Below, one piece after another: positions 4,972-14,963 of a stretch of DNA of 16,062 nt. Each line of letters begins with the position of its first letter. Position 1 is the stretch's first letter. A program made the translations under genes and the position numbers. Source of the DNA: Candidatus Heimdallarchaeota archaeon (lineage in GTDB: Archaea > Asgardarchaeota > Heimdallarchaeia > Heimdallarchaeales > Heimdallarchaeaceae); NCBI GenBank assembly GCA_016840095.1, contig JAEOSZ010000123.1, positions 1 through 16,062 on the forward strand, in the 5' to 3' direction. Below the pieces are notes generated by a model. The model had not been told where the DNA came from and did not search any database. It was given only the letters and a program-made list of their open reading frames with translations.

Positions 4972-6708
4972 ATGAAAAGCAAAAAATTATTTTATATGTT
5001 TAATATTCTTATTCTATATTGTTTGATAAGTGCTCTTACCACCTTTAATGCAGATGCTCTCAAGGATGAGAATCAAAAGAATTACAATATCAGTACAATA
5101 GACAGATCTTCTTGGGCTTGGACAGGACCTCAAATAATTTCCTCTGAAAGTGATATGGGTTCATTTAAACCTCAAATAGTAAATGATGAAGAAGGCAATC
5201 TCTATTGTGTTTGGGATGACAATTCAGGTATTCTAGGTTCAGGCAATGATTGGGATATTCTGTTTAAGCGATGGGATGCTGATACTTTTGAATGGAGTCT
5301 TACAGAAGTAATATCAACAGAAAGTGTAAATGATTCTACTAACCCCTTCATAACAATAGACTCAATTGGAAACATCTATTGTGTATGGGAAGACGATTCA
5401 GATTACTTAGGAGCTGAAGAAGATGATGACATATTCTTCAAGTTCTGGAATTCCACAATCTCTTCATGGACAACTACAGAAGTAGTTTCTACTGAAAGTA
5501 CAGCTAATTCTCAAAATCCAGTATTAGGTTTCGATAAATATGGTATATTCTATATAGCATGGCACGATAACACTCCTATTCTAAGTTCTAATACAGATGC
5601 TGATATATTCTTAAAACGATGGACATCTTTAAATGGAACTTTCGGTCCAACTGAACTTGTTTCCACAGAAAGCAATGGTTTTTCCTTTAAACCCTATATT
5701 ATTGTAGATCCTGAAGGTCACTTCTTTTTAACTTGGCAGGACAATACTAATTATTTAAGCGCAGGTACCGATTACGATATATTCTTCAAAGCTTGGAATT
5801 ATACTGGTTATACCTGGTCATCAGCAATAGTGATATCAACTCAAAGTACTCTTGATGCTTGGACTCCTACTATGGTACAGGATTCGAATTATGATATTCA
5901 CTTTGCATGGAGTGATACTACAGACTATTATGGTACAGCTGGATCTGATAGAGATATCTGCTACAGAAAGATGATTTATGAAACCTCATTTCTGACAAGT
6001 ACTGAAGTCATATCAGTCGTCAGTACTGATATATCAGAAGCTCCTTCTTTGACAATAGATAGTGAAAACAATCTGTATTTAGCCTGGAGTGACCCCACAG
6101 ATTATGATTCAGCTGGAACAGATGTTGATATTTTCTACTGTTATAAAGATGCAACATATGGACTTTGGAGTACAATTGAAGTAATCTCTTCAGAAAGCAC
6201 AATTCACTCACAACAACCTATTTTGCTATTAGATCCCAGTGGAGTTATCCAACTAGTATGGAGTGATGGAACAAATCTATATTCTTCAGGGAGTGATTAT
6301 GATATATTTTACAAATACTTTTCTGGTCCACCTGAAGAGCCAGAGTTAGCTTATATTGTTCCTAACCCTACTGACTCTAATTCCATAATCCTAGATTGGA
6401 GTAATGTTTCTTGGTCATTTGAATACTTTGTCTATAGATCCGACTCTTACATCTGGACTGTTGAAGACCTTACTCCTATTGCTACTTTAACTACTAGTTA
6501 CTATGTTGACACTCTCTCTGCTGAAGGCTACTTCTACTATGTAATTGTAGCTGGAAACGCAGCTGGAAACAGTTCTCGGTCTAACTGTGAATATGTGGAA
6601 TACAGACTCTCACATGTGGGTGAATATACAATTGTAACAAGTATACTACTTGCTACTTTGATTACATCAATCGTATTTTTCAGAATCAAGAAAAGAAAAC
6701 TTGACTAG
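4972..6708 (+). CDS. Membrane-anchored surface (glyco)protein: signal peptide, seven ~58-aa repeats (predicted beta-propeller), FN3-like domain, C-terminal TM
   Basis: Seven copies of (T)EV(I/V)STES...P.h..D..G.hY..W.D........D.DIF.K. FN3-like segment IILDWS...EYFVYRS...YYVD...YYVIVAGNAAGNSSRSN. TM followed by KKRK. Seven N-X-S/T sequons. Confidence 0.85.
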   Translation: MKSKKLFYMFNILILYCLISALTTFNADALKDENQKNYNISTIDRSSWAWTGPQIISSESDMGSFKPQIVNDEEGNLYCVWDDNSGILGSGNDWDILFKRWDADTFEWSLTEVISTESVNDSTNPFITIDSIGNIYCVWEDDSDYLGAEEDDDIFFKFWNSTISSWTTTEVVSTESTANSQNPVLGFDKYGIFYIAWHDNTPILSSNTDADIFLKRWTSLNGTFGPTELVSTESNGFSFKPYIIVDPEGHFFLTWQDNTNYLSAGTDYDIFFKAWNYTGYTWSSAIVISTQSTLDAWTPTMVQDSNYDIHFAWSDTTDYYGTAGSDRDICYRKMIYETSFLTSTEVISVVSTDISEAPSLTIDSENNLYLAWSDPTDYDSAGTDVDIFYCYKDATYGLWSTIEVISSESTIHSQQPILLLDPSGVIQLVWSDGTNLYSSGSDYDIFYKYFSGPPEEPELAYIVPNPTDSNSIILDWSNVSWSFEYFVYRSDSYIWTVEDLTPIATLTTSYYVDTLSAEGYFYYVIVAGNAAGNSSRSNCEYVEYRLSHVGEYTIVTSILLATLITSIVFFRIKKRKLD

Positions 6709-6734
6709 TCTCAGGACTAGTTCTTTTTTTTTTT
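6703..6734 (+). terminator. Hairpin plus long T-tract terminator
   Basis: ACTAGTC-TCAG-GACTAGT (6704-6721) overlapping the TAG stop, followed by an 11-T run (6724-6734). Confidence 0.7.
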
Positions 6735-6797: not shown

Positions 6798-7106
6798 CTA
6801 GTTTTTCTCTGATCTAACTTGTTTGAGACAAATTTTACAATAAACAGGTCTAATTCCATCAGGTTTGAAAGGAACTCTTATGGTTTTTTCACATCTTGAA
6901 CATTCAGCTGTGTGGAAGTAAGTAGGTTTTTTTCTTGATCTATCATAATTGGGTCTTTTTTGTCCAGTCCTAACATTATTTCTTGTATATGGTTTACTTT
7001 CACTCCTTTGATGAGGTTTTGTATTTGTATTTTGATAACTCCTTCTTGAGTCATTTGATCTCTCATTTTGAGTTCTTTTTGTGGTTTCTCTTTTTACTTC
7101 TGTCGT
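6798..7106 (-). CDS. CxxC-x17-CxxC zinc-finger protein with disordered Arg/Lys-rich N-terminus (102 aa), putative ACG start; absent from the ORF track
   Basis: Manual translation: (M)TEVKRETTKRTQNERSNDSRRSYQNTNTKPHQRSESKPYTRNNVRTGQKRPNYDRSRKKPTYFHTAECSRCEKTIRVPFKPDGIRPVYCKICLKQVRSEKN*. Exactly 17 residues separate the CxxC pairs, with the family signature VPFKP..RPVYC. There is no in-frame ATG/GTG/TTG after the upstream TGA at 7115-7113. Confidence 0.88.
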   Translation of the reverse strand, partial: TTEVKRETTKRTQNERSNDSRRSYQNTNTKPHQRSESKPYTRNNVRTGQKRPNYDRSRKKPTYFHTAECSRCEKTIRVPFKPDGIRPVYCKICLKQVRSEKN

Positions 7107-7174
7107 GTGTTTTCACCTTTTATAATTTTTAAATTAAAAAAAATAAAGATTGAAAGGAATTCGGAATTGGTTTG

Positions 7175-7192
7175 AAAGACTAATTAGTCTTT
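7175..7192. repeat. Perfect 18-bp palindrome
   Basis: AAAGACTAATTAGTCTTT, spanning the stop codon of the 23-aa ORF. Confidence 0.85.
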
Positions 7193-7251
7193 TTCTTTGT
7201 TGGAGCTTTAGTTGTTGAAGTTTTCTTCTTTGTTGACTTCTTCTTTGCCAT
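7180..7251 (-). CDS. 23-aa lysine-rich micropeptide MAKKKSTKKKTSTTKAPTKKKTN
   Basis: ATG at 7251 preceded by GAGGA-ATAAAT (RBS at good spacing). 10 Lys and no acidic residues. Collinear with both neighbouring small ORFs. Confidence 0.68.
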   Translation of the reverse strand: MAKKKSTKKKTSTTKAPTKKKTN

Positions 7252-7289
7252 ATTTATTCCTCAAATCAATCTTTTATCTTCCAGTCGAC

Positions 7290-7436
7290 TTATGATGCTT
7301 CCTCAGGATAATCGTCATAATATGAATCTTCTTCAAAATCTTCATATTCTTCAAATTCATCATATTCTTCGTCATCCCATTTTTCGTCATACCATTCTTC
7401 TTTTTCGACTAGCTTATTTTTATCTCTTGGATCCAT
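7290..7436 (-). CDS. 48-aa hyper-acidic, aromatic-rich microprotein
   Basis: MDPRDKNKLVEKEEWYDEKWDDEEYDEFEEYEDFEEDSYYDDYPEEAS*: 24/48 D/E and 10 W/Y/F. GAGGT RBS 9 nt upstream. Strong GAN codon periodicity. Confidence 0.75.
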   Translation of the reverse strand: MDPRDKNKLVEKEEWYDEKWDDEEYDEFEEYEDFEEDSYYDDYPEEAS

Positions 7437-7544
7437 AGTATCATTACCTCGAGTTTTTTCTGCTTACTCTCCTCAATCCCCTAAAGCAGCAATTTAACAT
7501 CATCAGGATGAGATGATTGGGCAAAAACTGGAACGCGAATTTAG

Positions 7545-7569
7545 CTTAAAAACTTTCTCATTAGAGAAA
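7545..7569 (-). promoter_or_regulatory. Archaeal BRE/TATA promoter for the microprotein cluster, with an overlapping inverted repeat
   Basis: Minus strand GAAAG-TTTTTAAG (7557-7545). TTTCTC-ATTA-GAGAAA at 7554-7569 overlaps the BRE. Predicted TSS near 7520. Confidence 0.55.
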
Positions 7570-7704: not shown

Positions 7705-8409
7705 GTGAAAATCTTGAAAATCAAGTTAAGTAAACCAAATGAATGGGGAAATTTCATCCATCCTGAAACACTAGAGATTAAGGAAATTGTAGGAGAAATA
7801 CCTGAAAAAGCCATTGTAATAATTCGAAAAAAAGAATATCGTTCTGAGCTAAGTAGATCTGTTGTATCTACCAGATATGGGGTGGTTTCTAAAGGAACTT
7901 TGTTATATTTAACAAAAAAAGATATATCAAAGAAACTAGCTAAACTATTTGTGAATTATACACACAAGCATGAGAAGATTCCTCCCAAAGTAACTATCTC
8001 AGAGAAGAGAGTTGATAACAAACCTGTTGAAATAACATATAATTACAGTACCAATGAATCTTTTCAATTTCTACTAAGTGAAGAGTTGTTAGCAGGTGAA
8101 AATCCAAAAAAATTCATTGAAAAAATAATAACTACTTCAGATAATTTATTTTCGAAAAAGGAATCCTCAAAACAATGGAGAGTAGATAATGCTCCTCATG
8201 GGAGATCATTGTGTAAAAAATGTAAACGGCAAATTAGAGTAAGCGAATTAAATTTAAGAGAAATTAAGGAAAAGGACGATCCTTCTACAACGGAATTCTA
8301 TCACTTTAGCTGTTTTCCTTTTACTAAATATGATCAGTTTTCCATCCATGGAATTAAGAGTTTATCAGAAGAGGATCAAAGGAAAGTAAGAAAAAAAATA
8401 GAAAAATAA
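7705..8409 (+). CDS. Protein with unknown N-terminal domain and C-terminal PARP-type zinc finger (zf-PARP)
   Basis: WRVDNAPHGRSLCKKCKRQI..SEL...FYHFSCF...IHGIKSLSEEDQRKVRK matches the CxxC...HxxC zf-PARP pattern, including the G..L..EDQ..(I/V)R tail. The start may be TTG at 7714 (GGTGA RBS at 7704-7708). Confidence 0.8.
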   Translation: MKILKIKLSKPNEWGNFIHPETLEIKEIVGEIPEKAIVIIRKKEYRSELSRSVVSTRYGVVSKGTLLYLTKKDISKKLAKLFVNYTHKHEKIPPKVTISEKRVDNKPVEITYNYSTNESFQFLLSEELLAGENPKKFIEKIITTSDNLFSKKESSKQWRVDNAPHGRSLCKKCKRQIRVSELNLREIKEKDDPSTTEFYHFSCFPFTKYDQFSIHGIKSLSEEDQRKVRKKIEK

Positions 8410-9467: not shown

Positions 9468-10550
9468 TCAGATTAATTCTTTAGTACTCAAATACTGTTC
9501 TAGTTTTTTTAATGATACCTGTGCTTCAATTGATTCTCTATGAAACTTAAAACCTAATCTATTGTTTATGGAAAGCATAGGCGCATTTGTTGTAACATTT
9601 TCTGTTCTAACAGTTGTAACCTCTGGAAATAGTTCTCGAATTTTCATCAGCATTGTAGCTTTCAACCACTTCCCTAATCCTCTTCCCCTATGCTCATCTT
9701 TTACTCCTGTTAATCCTTGAGTTATCATAGTTTTGATTCCTAGATTATATTGCATTTCAGTAAGTCCAGAAATTTCTCCATCTTCTTCTATAGTTAACAT
9801 AATTATGTTTTTCATACCGGTTTCTTCATATGAAAGTCTTCTATGTTCAAAATACTCAGGAGTAAATGAAATGGAAACATCTTCTACTCCATCAACAGGT
9901 TGTTGGTTGTAAGTTTCAGTATACAATTTACTGAATTGTTTGACATACTCATCAGAAATGCGATCCAAACAGACTAACTTTGTTGATGGTGATTTTTCTT
10001 TTCCTTTTTTCTCCCATAATTCAATCATCTTCCAGTCTACTTCTTCTAAGTTCAATCTATTTTCTGTACCAATTTCTAATTCAGCACCTATTTTTTGCAA
10101 AAATGATTTACCACTTGAATAATAAGTATCAGTAGCTAGGAGAGTTTTCTCATGTTCAACTGCTACTTCATAAACTTTTGATAGTGCAAAAGTACCAATC
10201 CCTTGTCTGTGATAGTCCTCTAGAATATTGATATAGAACTCCATATACTCCTTACTTTCATTGTAGGTTTCAGTTCCTTTTCGAGGAATAACACATTGAA
10301 TAAATCCCACCTGTTTGTGAGCTGATCTATCCATCATAGTAAACATTAAACCTAGAACTTCTGGATGTTGAGCATAGAGCTTCAATCCTTTTTCAACTGC
10401 ATCATCAGAAGTAGATGTGGGGTTATCTGGATTTCTTTGAACACTTAGAGTTTTGCGATATTCGTGGTGTTTAATCCATCTTTTTTCTGGCAAAGTAAGA
10501 GGATCAAAATCAAGGATTTTAATATGCTCAAGAGAGGAGTGATCAGACAT
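9468..10550 (-). CDS. Tandem (double-domain) GNAT N-acetyltransferase, paralogue 1
   Basis: Two acetyl-CoA motif-A loops (YHRQGIGT and HRGRGLGKWLK) plus NAPMLSINNRLGF. ATG at 10550 preferred over GTG at 10559; start uncertain. Confidence 0.88.
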   Translation of the reverse strand: MSDHSSLEHIKILDFDPLTLPEKRWIKHHEYRKTLSVQRNPDNPTSTSDDAVEKGLKLYAQHPEVLGLMFTMMDRSAHKQVGFIQCVIPRKGTETYNESKEYMEFYINILEDYHRQGIGTFALSKVYEVAVEHEKTLLATDTYYSSGKSFLQKIGAELEIGTENRLNLEEVDWKMIELWEKKGKEKSPSTKLVCLDRISDEYVKQFSKLYTETYNQQPVDGVEDVSISFTPEYFEHRRLSYEETGMKNIIMLTIEEDGEISGLTEMQYNLGIKTMITQGLTGVKDEHRGRGLGKWLKATMLMKIRELFPEVTTVRTENVTTNAPMLSINNRLGFKFHRESIEAQVSLKKLEQYLSTKELI

Positions 10551-10638
10551 TTTACTCACTTATTAGTCAAAAAAATGATAAAAGGCATTTATTACATTAT
10601 CTTTCATGAACACAAGTTTCCAAAACGTAAAAACTATC

Positions 10639-11355
10639 CTAAACACCTAAATCCCGTTCATTTGATTGGTTTAGATACTTTATTACTCCTATTCCCAAGC
10701 CGATATATGCAACCGCAATTACATACTGCAACAACGAATTCCCCATTCTATGAATAATCTGTTCAGTGATTATGTCGAATGTTGAAGCAATTCCAACTAA
10801 GATTGAATATAACACAGATAATGATGCCAAAGCAAGAAACGAATATTTGGCAATGTTTGGTGTGTCACTTAGTATAAAGAGAACAACAGTATAGCAGATT
10901 ATTGCAATTACTAATAATATAGGATTAATCACAACAACAGTCATGTGAAATTTCCTTGTTCTATGAAGTAAGAAGATTACATAGTTGAGAGGTCCTACAA
11001 AAATCAAAAATGATGATCCAACAAGACTTAGATATCTTGTTGTCCTTCTTTCTTGGAATAATTTGTAGAAAACTGAGAAGAACAATGTTACACCAATAGT
11101 TTGAACAGTTGTAGTTATTAGTAATAGTGCCCTTGAGATAATATTTGGTTCTCCATTCAAGGCAACTGCAGGGCATAAATCGCAAATTGCGTTATACAGA
11201 AGACTATATCCCTCATGAGAAGTGTTCCACTCATGTCCTCCTGGATAATAAGCCATAGTTAAAACAAAAGTAACTATAGAAATAGCTGCTGTAATCATAA
11301 AAACAATAGTAATTACCTTGAAATTTTTACCATTGTTTCTAAGATTGACAAACAT
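10639..11355 (-). CDS. Multi-pass (about 6 TM) membrane protein, possibly DUF998-like
   Basis: Six hydrophobic segments and a loop YYPGG...GYS...NAICDL after TM1. Family assignment is tentative. Confidence 0.7.
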   Translation of the reverse strand: MFVNLRNNGKNFKVITIVFMITAAISIVTFVLTMAYYPGGHEWNTSHEGYSLLYNAICDLCPAVALNGEPNIISRALLLITTTVQTIGVTLFFSVFYKLFQERRTTRYLSLVGSSFLIFVGPLNYVIFLLHRTRKFHMTVVVINPILLVIAIICYTVVLFILSDTPNIAKYSFLALASLSVLYSILVGIASTFDIITEQIIHRMGNSLLQYVIAVAYIGLGIGVIKYLNQSNERDLGV

Positions 11356-11394
11356 GCGGGTTAGTGTTCTTTTACTATGAAAAGGATTATGGTG

Positions 11395-12714
11395 TCAGAA
11401 ATTTTGTCTCCTTCTTATCACATTCTTCAAGATAAAATATAAACCTGTACCCATCAAAGCTGCACTTGATAGCCCTATAAGGTAATAGAAGTATAATGGT
11501 AAATGCCCTAGATAAAAGTCACTTCCAATTGGGTCTGTTTCTCCATCAATTGCTTGACGCATAATAGAAAATGTATCTATGTGATGTTCAGCTGTTAATA
11601 TTTGATCTGTATATGGCCCCATGCCAGCTAGTATTACTTCTGTATCTGTATGTCCCCCTGTACCCCAACCTACATCTACTTCTTGAGCTCTAGCTGTCCT
11701 TTTATCTAACTTCTCAGTATAAGAATCAGTTTCAAGAGGTATTTCAGTTATGAATGAATAATCTTTCACAGAAAAACCTCCGGTTTCATGATCAGCAGTA
11801 ACTAGCAACTGCCAATCGGAGTTTTGTTCTGCTAGATTTTTAACATATCTTACCGCTTTTTCAAATTCAATAATCTGATGAGCAAGATATATTTCATCAT
11901 TATCATGTCCAGCCCAATCAATTTGTGAACCTTCAACCATCAAGAAAAATGGTTGCCCAGTAGAGTTAAGTAAGTCTATAGCTTTGATTGTCATTTCACT
12001 TAAAGTTGGAATAGTTGAATTCTCCAGCATTGTTTGGAGAGGAGGTAATGACCCACCTGTAAATAACCCTAGAACTGGAACATCTGTTACACTTGCTAAA
12101 GCTGTTTCATTTGTAACATACTCATATCCTAAGGTTTCAAAATCTGAGATATAATTACCTATATATTTCTCTTCAAATCCTCCACCTAGCATGACAGATA
12201 CATTTGCTTGGGAGAAATCTTCAGCAATTTCTTGATAATTTCCTCTACTCGGATCATGAGCTGCAAAGGATGCTGGTGTTGCATGTGTTAAGTGGCTTGT
12301 TGCTACAAGACCAGTAGCATATCCATTCTGTTTAGCTATCTCAAGAATAGTGGTTAGATCCATTTTGGCATTCCAATTAGTTGCTATCCGACCATTTTTT
12401 GTTTTTACTCCTGTACTTATAGCAGTTGCAGAAGCTGCAGAATCAGTAGTAGTTCCATCAACATTGGCTGTTGAAACAGTAGTGTTGTAAGGAAAAGAAA
12501 GAATACTAGAAGTATTTGATAATCCATATTCAACCAATTGTCCAAAGTAAATTTGTTCCAAACCCATTCCATCTCCTATAAATAGAATGATGTTGGAAGG
12601 ATAAGTATCTAAAGCTGATGTAGTAATCGAAAACTTCTGATGTAAACTAAGCCCAGTAACTATAACCACAAGAATTGCTAGAGTAAAATATGTAGATTTT
12701 GATTGGAATTTCAT
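11395..12714 (-). CDS. phoA: Alkaline phosphatase (PhoA family), secreted and C-terminally membrane-anchored
   Basis: IGDGMG, TDSAASATA (catalytic Ser), THATPA, VEGSQIDWAGH, VTADHETGG and GHT motifs. N-terminal signal/TM and a C-terminal TM followed by RRR. Confidence 0.95.
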   Translation of the reverse strand: MKFQSKSTYFTLAILVVIVTGLSLHQKFSITTSALDTYPSNIILFIGDGMGLEQIYFGQLVEYGLSNTSSILSFPYNTTVSTANVDGTTTDSAASATAISTGVKTKNGRIATNWNAKMDLTTILEIAKQNGYATGLVATSHLTHATPASFAAHDPSRGNYQEIAEDFSQANVSVMLGGGFEEKYIGNYISDFETLGYEYVTNETALASVTDVPVLGLFTGGSLPPLQTMLENSTIPTLSEMTIKAIDLLNSTGQPFFLMVEGSQIDWAGHDNDEIYLAHQIIEFEKAVRYVKNLAEQNSDWQLLVTADHETGGFSVKDYSFITEIPLETDSYTEKLDKRTARAQEVDVGWGTGGHTDTEVILAGMGPYTDQILTAEHHIDTFSIMRQAIDGETDPIGSDFYLGHLPLYFYYLIGLSSAALMGTGLYFILKNVIRRRQNF

Positions 12715-12829
12715 ACAAACACACTTCTTTTCTTAATTAGATATGATATATGCTCTTTAAAAAAGATAATTCTTCTCCCAAACTCATTTTTCAAATTACT
12801 TATTAGTGTGCAAAAGCATAGGAGCTATT

Positions 12830-13870
12830 ATGAAGTTCAGATTTGAGGAATACAATGCCAAAGAAGTATCAGAAGAATTCTGGGACAGATTATATGAGTA
12901 TGAGACAGCTTATTATAAGTTTCATAATCCTAATGATCCTCCACCAAACAAGGAAGCATTGATTCAGCGTATAAAAGCTGATCGTTCTCATTGTTACTTT
13001 ATGCATTCTATTGCTCTTACTTCTGAGGATAAGATTGTTGGTAATTGTTGGTTTTGGGCACCTTCAGAGACATCACCTGAATATGAACAGAATAAGCACA
13101 TATGTTGGGCTGGTGTTTATGTTCTACCAGATTATTGTAGACAAGGAATTGGAACTTCTTTGCTAGAAAAAGTAGTTAAAAAAGCTCAAGCACATGACAG
13201 AACTACAATTCAGATGGGAACCAATCATGATTCTGGAAGAGCTTTTCTCAAAAAGTATGGGGCTACATTTACAATTGCTGGTGCAGAAAATCGACTAGAA
13301 ATGGAAAACGTTGATTGGGACTTAATGCAATCTTGGGTTGATGAGGGTAAAAAAAGAAATGAAGGTGTTACTCTTGAATCCTTTATTGAGTGCCCAGAGG
13401 AAATCTTAGAAGAATTTTGTGAAATGTTCACAGAAGCAGTTAATATGGCACCTCAGGGTGAATCTGAATTTAGAACTAATATTGATGGAAATTTAAGAAG
13501 AGTCTATGAAAAGCAGAATAAAGAAGAAGGATGGATTCATCAAACCCTAATATCTCGAGAAAGCGATGAGAGAATTTCCGGAATGACTGAAATTTATTAT
13601 GATCCTAGAGAGGGATATAAACTCCGTCAGGAACTTACAGGTGTTCGTCCCGAATTTAGGGGAAGGGGATTGGGGAAGTGGTTAAAAGCACACAATATCA
13701 TTTACATTCGAGAAACTTATCCTGAAGTCAAAAGAATAATCACTGGTAACGCTGAAGTTAATGCTCCTATGCTCTCAATTAATAATCGAATGGGATATAA
13801 AAAATACAAAGCTGGAGAAGGCTACAAATTCAAGTTGGATGATCTAACAAAGAGATTGGAAATGAAATAA
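12830..13870 (+). CDS. Tandem GNAT N-acetyltransferase, paralogue 2
   Basis: CRQGIGT and FRGRGLGKWLKA motifs. Start moved to ATG 12830 because of the AGGAG RBS and because MKFRFEE aligns with MKFRIKE of the next gene; both are then 346 aa. Confidence 0.9.
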   Translation: MKFRFEEYNAKEVSEEFWDRLYEYETAYYKFHNPNDPPPNKEALIQRIKADRSHCYFMHSIALTSEDKIVGNCWFWAPSETSPEYEQNKHICWAGVYVLPDYCRQGIGTSLLEKVVKKAQAHDRTTIQMGTNHDSGRAFLKKYGATFTIAGAENRLEMENVDWDLMQSWVDEGKKRNEGVTLESFIECPEEILEEFCEMFTEAVNMAPQGESEFRTNIDGNLRRVYEKQNKEEGWIHQTLISRESDERISGMTEIYYDPREGYKLRQELTGVRPEFRGRGLGKWLKAHNIIYIRETYPEVKRIITGNAEVNAPMLSINNRMGYKKYKAGEGYKFKLDDLTKRLEMK

Positions 13871-13922
13871 TATTTCTCTTTTTACCATTTTCTTATAAAG
13901 GTTTGATGCTAGAAGAACTATC

Positions 13923-14963
13923 ATGAAATTTAGAATCAAGGAATTCAAACCAAGAGAAGTTCCAGATGAATTCTGGGAAGGATATTTCGAATTTATAGAG
14001 TCTAACCACAGAGAGATGAATCCCGATGATCCTCTACCTAGTAGAGAGGGTATTATCCAACGCCAAAAAGCAGATTATCCTGATTATACTGTTAAACGTT
14101 GGTTAGCTTACACTCCAGAAAATAAAATTATTGGATGGGTAGGGTTTGGTGCTTCTAAAGAAACAGCTTCTGATCACGAAGAAAACAAGCATATTGCTCA
14201 AATTAATGTTAGGGTTCTCAAAAACTATCGAAGAAAAGGATTAGGAACAGAATTACTCAAAACTGCACTCAAAGAAGCTATAGCTTTGGATCGAACAACC
14301 ATAGAAACTGGTACAGATCATGAAGCAGGTGCAGCTTTCCTTAAACATTATGGAGCTCAACTAACTATTGAGGGGGCAGAAAATAGATTAGAAATGGAAG
14401 ACGTTGATTGGGATCTTATGCAATCTTGGATTGATGAAGGGGCAAAAAGAGCTCCAGGAGTAACCATTGAAGAGTTTGACAATATATGTCCTGAAGTAAT
14501 CATAGATGAATACGTAGAGATGTTTACTGAAGCACTTAATATGCAACCTCTTGGAGAAACCGAAGGTAGAGCAAACATAGATGCGGAAGCTTGGAGAAAA
14601 AATGAGCAAAGAAGGGGAGAAACTGGTCAAAAAAATTACGCAATGTATACTAAAGAACCAGATGGAAGAATTTCAGGTTTGACTGATATCTACTTTGATC
14701 CACGAGATGGAGATAGAATACATCAAGGGCTAACAGGAGTTCGTCCAAAATTCAGAGGAAAAGGATTAGGAAAGTGGTTGAAAGCAAAGATGATTTTTCA
14801 TATTAAAGAGAACTACCCTGACGTACAAAGAATACTCACTGGAAATGCTGAAACTAATGAAGCTATGCTCTCTATAAACAAGAGAATGGGATTCAAGAGA
14901 TACAAAGGTGAAGATGGTTACAAATTCAAAACAGAGGAGCTTGCAAAGAAATTAGGTTTGTAA
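13923..14963 (+). CDS. Tandem GNAT N-acetyltransferase, paralogue 3 (tandem duplicate)
   Basis: YRRKGLGT and FRGKGLGKWLKA motifs. Shares GAENRLEME.VDWDLMQSW.DEG with paralogue 2. Has its own CTTATAAA TATA-like box about 24 nt upstream (leaderless). Confidence 0.92.
   Translation: MKFRIKEFKPREVPDEFWEGYFEFIESNHREMNPDDPLPSREGIIQRQKADYPDYTVKRWLAYTPENKIIGWVGFGASKETASDHEENKHIAQINVRVLKNYRRKGLGTELLKTALKEAIALDRTTIETGTDHEAGAAFLKHYGAQLTIEGAENRLEMEDVDWDLMQSWIDEGAKRAPGVTIEEFDNICPEVIIDEYVEMFTEALNMQPLGETEGRANIDAEAWRKNEQRRGETGQKNYAMYTKEPDGRISGLTDIYFDPRDGDRIHQGLTGVRPKFRGKGLGKWLKAKMIFHIKENYPDVQRILTGNAETNEAMLSINKRMGFKRYKGEDGYKFKTEELAKKLGL

Follow-up and report, generated by a model that had tools for sequence, protein, structure and literature searches.

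A lysine-rich micro-gene of one Heimdallarchaeia genus appears to conserve an H1-tail-like composition rather than the histone H3 register

On the minus strand of the window, by which we mean the whole 16,062-nt stretch of Heimdallarchaeal DNA analysed here, an unannotated open reading frame at positions 7180–7251 specifies a 23-residue lysine-rich peptide. We put at about 0.5 the probability that this frame is a genus-restricted micro-gene for a charge-driven nucleic-acid-binding polycation, which would be buffered by a co-transcribed polyanion. The original prediction had presented the peptide as standing in exact register with the N-terminal tail of histone H3. This claim was not borne out by the relatives of the gene: two of the 11 intact homologues keep the register, and the rest keep lysine richness. 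Judged from their alignment, the likeness to the H3 tail is a low-complexity coincidence that most relatives do not share.

The lysine-rich frame is conserved in the manner of a protein-coding gene

The frame (7251 to 7180) consists of an ATG, 22 further codons and a TAG, leaving 22 residues after loss of the initiator methionine. Lysine occupies 10 of the 23 residues, the net charge is +10, and the sole x-P-x-K motif is A-P-T-K. Upstream lies a Shine-Dalgarno sequence, GAGGA (7258–7262), whose GAGG is invariant in eight aligned loci. The TAG after residue 23 ends the peptide, with no histone fold continuous with it and a zinc-finger gene next; the predicted stand-alone peptide is upheld by the frame, the Shine-Dalgarno sequence and the substitution pattern together. 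Using the leader, the acidic ORF and the divergent zf-PARP gene described below as anchors, we gathered ten further intact homologues, all within one Heimdallarchaeia genus or on unplaced metagenome contigs. With the window copy, this gives six peptides from five genomes of the genus and five on metagenome contigs, 21–34 residues long. Across eight pairs of homologues pN/pS ranged from 0.11 to 0.41, the nearest pair (0.11) differing by 10 synonymous and 4 non-synonymous changes. As a Shine-Dalgarno sequence and an ATG are present in every intact copy and pN/pS is this low, the comparison shows that the frame is a genuine gene selected at the protein level.

It is highly improbable that the frame arose by chance in A-rich intergenic DNA and goes untranslated or has no function. 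A-rich strands easily give lysine-rich frames, and lysine-rich extensions arise readily from AT-rich DNA (PMC10919886); one lineage, moreover, carries a nonsense codon. Against this, pN/pS lies far below 1, indels in the gene are all frame-preserving, and the Shine-Dalgarno sequence and ATG are invariant. The nonsense codon is an in-frame TAA at codon 10, which cuts the peptide in the G016 lineage and two like metagenome contigs; these loci (L002:1338-1400, which is G016:C51, and L059 and L061) carry the one nonsense codon plus several replacements, the same in three assemblies, with the Shine-Dalgarno sequence, flanking arms, acidic gene and ACG-started zinc-finger gene all intact. The peptide is missing from the L112 locus.

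No scanned member of the peptide family matched Pfam or NCBIfam, and no family for the peptide, its acidic partner or the locus was found in PDB, Pfam, NCBIfam or Rfam. A profile of the peptide family missed even its own gene and is uninformative on absence. In the same slot on the P0009 contig a 32-aa gene has been called. A 268-nt contig of a relative covers 7267–7514 and runs into a Shine-Dalgarno sequence and an ATG; it comes from one run of uncertain kind, probably DNA, and is not expression evidence.

The H3 register of the window copy is lost in most homologues

Aligned without gaps to H3(1-22), a reference that we verified against PDB H3 peptides, the window peptide is identical at 8 of 18 positions (A1, K4, T6, K9, K14, A15, P16 and K18). 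These identities, the substitutions at positions 2, 8, 10 and 11, and the in-register placement of K4, K9, K14, K18 and the KAP motif in this copy are as originally described. Composition-preserving shuffles of the peptide gave p = 0.005 for identity and 0.0009 for BLOSUM62 score, 0.017 and 0.003 with A1 fixed, 0.005 when any offset was allowed, 0.014 and 0.008 with the KKK and KAP blocks left intact, and 0.03–0.04 for all four H3 lysines falling in register, all of these being post hoc values for a single target picked after the peptide was seen. The match is unlikely by chance as a single test (p 0.001–0.017), and modest given the post hoc choice of target. In a HMMER search against PDB H3 peptides the peptide had no match at E values up to 10 and H3(1-22) had 141, with the proviso that composition filters may suppress a lysine-rich query.

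Besides the window copy, only the homologue at L104:2515-2583 (minus strand) keeps all eight matches, which it does despite 10 synonymous changes; for the other nine homologues the shuffle p-values against H3 were 0.23–0.90. K4 is present in 11 of the 11 and K9 in 8, K14, A15 and K18 are each present in 4 and P16 in 2, while R2, T3, Q5, S10, G12, G13 and R17 of H3 occur in none. The motifs around the modified lysines are broken accordingly: A1-R2-T3-K4-Q5, the reader motif, lacks R2, T3 and Q5 throughout; A-R-K9-S10 finds A7 and S10 in no homologue and R8 in one; and G-G-K14-A-P lacks both glycines everywhere, with K14-A15-P16 together in two. The synteny-based orthologue check proposed for K4, K9, K14-A-P and K18 as conserved columns thus found a register that is not conserved. 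Four close homologues carry one extra codon ahead of the second lysine run, so that K/R-(T/N/A)-P is shifted one position later, and the remaining homologues outside the register are repeat-like; register loss in the nine is mostly due to a one-codon indel. Since K4, K9 and K18 fall within KKK runs spaced about five apart, they are shift-tolerant, and a match to H3 at these positions comes almost for free. In a tree built on the neighbouring zf-PARP protein, one relevant fork of which is weakly supported, the two copies in H3 register are not sisters and two changes are needed, which implies that the indel moves repeatedly.

Controls point the same way. In the proteome of the same genome, 15 proteins contain a segment that agrees with the peptide at 8/18 positions or more, with a maximum of 13/18. 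The N-terminus of one Asgard RadA agrees with the peptide at 11/18 positions and with H3 at 7/18, and two genuine Asgard histone tails are 2/18 and 4/18 identical to H3. Unrelated K/T-rich tails thus match the peptide better than H3 does, and the caveat about low complexity and convergence that had accompanied the original prediction proved well founded. Asgard tails have been described as compositionally similar, and not obviously homologous, to eukaryotic tails (PMC10919886), and no tail-reader domains were found in Asgards (10.64898/2026.07.02.735847). A true H3-tail homologue or mimic, in which the K4/K9/K14-A-P/K18 register would be selected and read or written by H3-type enzymes, could draw on the single-test p-values, the second eight-position match and the retention of K4 and K9. 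The homologue alignment nonetheless largely refutes it, and together with the non-sister position of the two register carriers and the control tails it makes this reading extremely unlikely.

Homologues share a basic, H1-tail-like composition

What the homologues have in common is an H1-tail-like composition and not the H3 register. Lysine, threonine, alanine, serine and proline (46%, 17%, 12%, 9% and 9%) make up 92% of the 270 residues of the family, which contains no acidic residue. Each peptide begins M-(A/S)-K, contains 37–48% lysine and has a net charge of +10 to +15. An x-P-x-K motif occurs in 10 of the 11 homologues and S/T-P-x-K in three, the window copy not among them; a paralogue (L051:2172-2267, plus strand) is composed of tandem PAKK-type repeats. 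Of the suggestion that the gene encodes a free histone-tail- or H1-like DNA-condensing peptide, the H1-like basic composition stands, supported by the pure PAKK-type repeats of the paralogue, and the free H3 tail falls with the register.

K/T/P-rich tails seem to be a habit of this lineage. Long disordered tails of this kind sit on unrelated proteins of the same genome (G000:C4, with an 891-aa and a RadA-like gene, and C122, C128 and C159), and one of these ORFs is 130 aa long and largely AKKTTT repeats. In another Asgard family, RadA-like proteins (L153:1513-2634 and L152) start with long five-residue lysine repeats that resemble histone tails. Four genomes of one other Asgard genus carry stand-alone 37-aa micro-genes of KKKAP/AKKA repeats (L155:1414-1527, minus strand, and L159-L161), which are 6/18 identical to H3 and have no acidic neighbour in the one locus mapped. 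Because no homologue of the acidic partner was detected outside the genus, these 37-aa peptides are probably analogues, or too diverged to link.

The peptide is encoded behind an acidic micro-gene in a small, patchy module

The peptide gene belongs to a module with the order leader, acidic peptide, lysine-rich peptide and, often, an ACG-started zinc-finger gene, divergent from a gene for a PARP-type zinc-finger protein. On the minus strand of the window, a BRE/TATA-like promoter (7545–7559), conserved in all module loci, lies 30 nt upstream of the putative transcription start at 7522, a distance judged against archaeal promoter spacing. The conserved 5' leader of about 85 nt (7437–7522), with a weak consensus hairpin, is followed by the acidic micro-gene (7290–7436), which has its own Shine-Dalgarno sequence and an MDP(R/K) start and encodes 48 residues studded with Trp, Tyr and Phe (net charge −19). 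In 10 of the 11 intact loci an acidic ORF immediately precedes the peptide gene, its Trp/Tyr-containing product ranging from 37 to 59 residues across loci. In four compact loci the Shine-Dalgarno sequence of the peptide overlaps the acidic stop codon, which suggests translational coupling. A pyrimidine-rich 3' arm with a U-tract (7136–7160, minus strand) probably terminates or attenuates transcription ahead of the zinc-finger gene, and a hairpin with T-runs between convergent genes (6703–6722) probably marks the transcript end.

Within the genus, 5 of 25 genomes matched a profile of the acidic partner; a search covering 375 other Asgard genomes yielded no match, and the module is therefore not core chromatin. 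Its parts are also separable. The acidic ORF stays where the peptide is cut (G016) or absent (L112), the acidic start and leader are lost and the peptide is kept in G023, and G008 retains a promoter remnant only. Past the acidic ORF, the L112 contig (L112:1-222) changes to a glutaredoxin-like gene of different style, by replacement or as a chimeric contig. We found no paper describing this module.

The leader is more conserved than the peptides, its first 20 nt being nearly invariant in 11 loci, and it may act as a regulatory RNA in cis or as a site bound by the divergent zf-PARP protein. It has no Rfam family. Its consensus structure has 15 pairs, only 2 of them with double changes, and single-strand z-scores were not significant. 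Hammerhead and k-turn readings were rejected, as the CUGAUGA word is not conserved.

The RNA around the peptide gene raises the alternative of a cis-acting leader or coupling peptide, in which translation of the lysine runs would open a stem or the U-tract and so tune the weak ACG-started zinc-finger gene, the peptide as such being of minor importance. A purine-rich spacer (7263–7281, minus strand) can, together with the Shine-Dalgarno sequence, pair with the 3' UTR in a possible long-range stem around the ORF; this stem has a z-score of −2.65 in the window copy, in the top 1.2% of genes with a Shine-Dalgarno sequence in the genome, and the pairing reaches p below 0.02 in three loci. In only 1 of 12 loci did the locus's own partner pair best, pairings between loci are no less stable than own pairings, and the stem is absent in compact loci; it is largely compositional and we do not claim it. 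The conserved non-canonical start of the downstream gene would suit such a mechanism, but the peptide persists without a co-directional zinc-finger gene downstream, and truncation of the peptide leaves the ACG gene in place. We regard this alternative as unlikely.

Zinc-finger genes lie on either side of the peptide pair

The gene downstream of the peptide (6798–7106, minus strand) encodes a CxxC-x17-CxxC zinc finger (PF23477, TIGR04272) with a basic disordered N-terminus. Its Shine-Dalgarno-defined start is ACG (7106–7104 in the window) in five of the seven loci that are complete, and the other two have ATG there, which constitutes good comparative support for what appears to be a conserved non-canonical ACG start. 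ACG also occurs at one cut locus (the loci compared include L104, L053, L051, L060 and L069), and two unlinked copies of the zinc-finger family in the genus start with ATG. The gene follows the peptide at 8 of 12 loci. This association favours a stress peptide that would partner the zinc finger on RNA or the ribosome instead of binding DNA. In Methanosarcina, small CxxC zinc-finger proteins are both expressed and able to bind zinc (PMC12704099). K/T-rich tails are also found on ribosomal-protein-like genes of the genome. The zinc-finger gene is, however, absent at four loci with an intact peptide, and the patchy distribution speaks against a ribosomal subunit. We consider such an RNA-directed role possible, if on the unlikely side.

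On the other side, a divergent gene (7705–8409, plus strand) encodes an unknown domain of about 160 residues and a PARP-type zinc finger (PF00645). It is syntenic at 11 of 12 peptide loci, and genes of this type occur in 22 of 30 genomes of the family. Paralogues elsewhere adjoin other genes; in several genomes one has a conserved 160-aa gene as its divergent neighbour and an acyl-CoA-ligase-like gene as its convergent one. A tblastn-seeded scan of genome contigs with the zf-PARP gene gave no match. PARP-type zinc fingers sense DNA breaks.

A truncated histone is the only histone found in the genome

Searches with PF00808, PF00125 and histone queries found no canonical nucleosomal histone in this 89%-complete genome. 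The only histone found is of the alpha3-truncated (face-to-face) type, cut by a contig end (G000:C10:15398-15537), and a PF00808 search of two single-contig genomes of the family likewise found only the alpha3-truncated histone. This agrees with a report of one Heimdallarchaeia member without nucleosomal histones (10.64898/2026.07.02.735847). The sole genome of the genus with canonical histone matches is G003 (L117), titled Ca. Thorarchaeota, placed in this Heimdallarchaeia genus and possibly mislabelled or mixed.

These findings bear on a further alternative, in which the peptide would be a free Asgard-type histone tail acting in trans to tail-less alpha3-truncated histones and switched by GNAT/Sir2 acetylation. 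Its length and lysine content lie within the range of the HLoB/HMpB tails (>30% Lys, 16–32 aa), a paralogue shares 10/18 positions with a genuine Asgard histone tail, and the genome has three Sir2 genes beside the truncated histone. The GNAT LoHAT2 accepts lysine-rich tails broadly (10.64898/2026.07.02.735847), so that acetylation of the peptide would be plausible with no need for an H3 register. Yet MAKKK-type starts also occur on RadA and seven ordinary proteins of the genome, no histone gene was present at any module locus examined, the truncated histone is found in most genomes of the family and the module in only 6, and Sir2 genes are common, 10 of 14 control genomes having them. On balance a tail acting in trans is doubtful.

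The GNATs of the window are two-domain proteins of about 350 residues that match models of the mycothiol-synthase and RimI types only weakly. The genome has five related two-domain GNATs, three of them clustered at 9468–14963 in the window. Within the limited flanks available, GNATs of this type lie near 2 of 12 other loci, and we rejected the local GNATs as dedicated writers of the peptide.

Discussion

The preferred reading is that the lysine-rich peptide is the second cistron of a small transcript carrying the leader, the acidic peptide, the lysine-rich peptide and often the ACG-started zinc finger. It would be a disordered polycation whose function lies in its charge density and its KKK and x-P-x-K repeats, not in an H3-specific register. 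Like the C-terminal tails of H1, it would attach to the backbone of DNA or RNA irrespective of sequence. The acidic aromatic chain made from the same transcript may bind and buffer it, in the way that prothymosin-alpha does H1. The module would be an accessory system for coating nucleic acids, probably related to stress and open to loss in individual lineages. That both conserved neighbours are zinc-finger genes, one of them PARP-type, is consistent with a role at nucleic acids. Against the polycation reading, the peptide (22 residues, +10) falls well short of H1 tails and of bacterial H1-like proteins in length, and the rarity of true S/T-P-x-K, the separable partners and the patchiness of the module also count.

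A bolder version would make the module a micro-operon that pairs a free acetylatable histone-tail- or H1-tail-like peptide with its own acidic chaperone under the control of the divergent PARP-type zinc-finger protein. It would then be a minimal prokaryotic analogue of the H1/prothymosin/PARP1 chromatin-loosening circuit at DNA breaks, set in a Heimdallarchaeia lineage that seemingly has no tailed nucleosomal histones. We think this very unlikely. The analysis disposes of a tempting but mistaken eukaryogenesis claim: the apparent free H3 tail of an Asgard archaeon is a coincidence of low complexity. The locus itself is left as a small, unannotated operon whose micro-proteins carry opposite charges and whose conserved zinc-finger gene appears to start at ACG. 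If the pair acts like an H1 tail and prothymosin, disordered polycation/polyanion control of chromatin would exist as stand-alone micro-genes in archaea closely related to eukaryotes; the patchy genus-level distribution limits the bearing of this on eukaryote origins.

Set beside known systems, the peptide shares with the H3 tail (1-18) A1, K4, T6, K9, K14-A15-P16 and K18 in the window copy and one homologue; unlike that tail it is without R2-T3, Q5, K9-S10 and G12-G13, has lost the register in nine of 11 homologues and stands alone. Asgard HLoB/HMpB histone tails resemble it in their MAKKK-type start, lysine content and length, and the 10/18 identity of one paralogue to a real tail belongs here, but at all 11 loci the peptide is without a fused histone fold and its likeness to these tails is no better than to RadA tails.

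Closer in kind are the C-terminal tail of H1 and the K/A/P tails of bacterial H1-like proteins, of which HupB, AlgP and chlamydial Hc2 are examples. They share the disordered K/T/A/S/P-only composition, x-P-x-K and, with one paralogue, tandem PAKK-type repeats; motifs of H1 tails touch the DNA minor groove (PMC6615755). The peptides differ in being 21–34 residues long, in having no winged-helix or HU domain and no Pfam or NCBIfam match, and in being encoded behind an acidic micro-gene. That arrangement recalls the pair of prothymosin-alpha and H1, which form a disordered polyelectrolyte complex (PMC7661507) and have been linked to PARP1 recruitment (PMC12139302). The parallel is one of analogy, with no homology expected and much shorter chains here. 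In both cases the partners are oppositely charged low-complexity chains, −19 and +10 here; in the archaeon they are adjacent cistrons behind one promoter, an arrangement that points to co-expression, in a module divergent from a gene for a PARP-type zinc finger.
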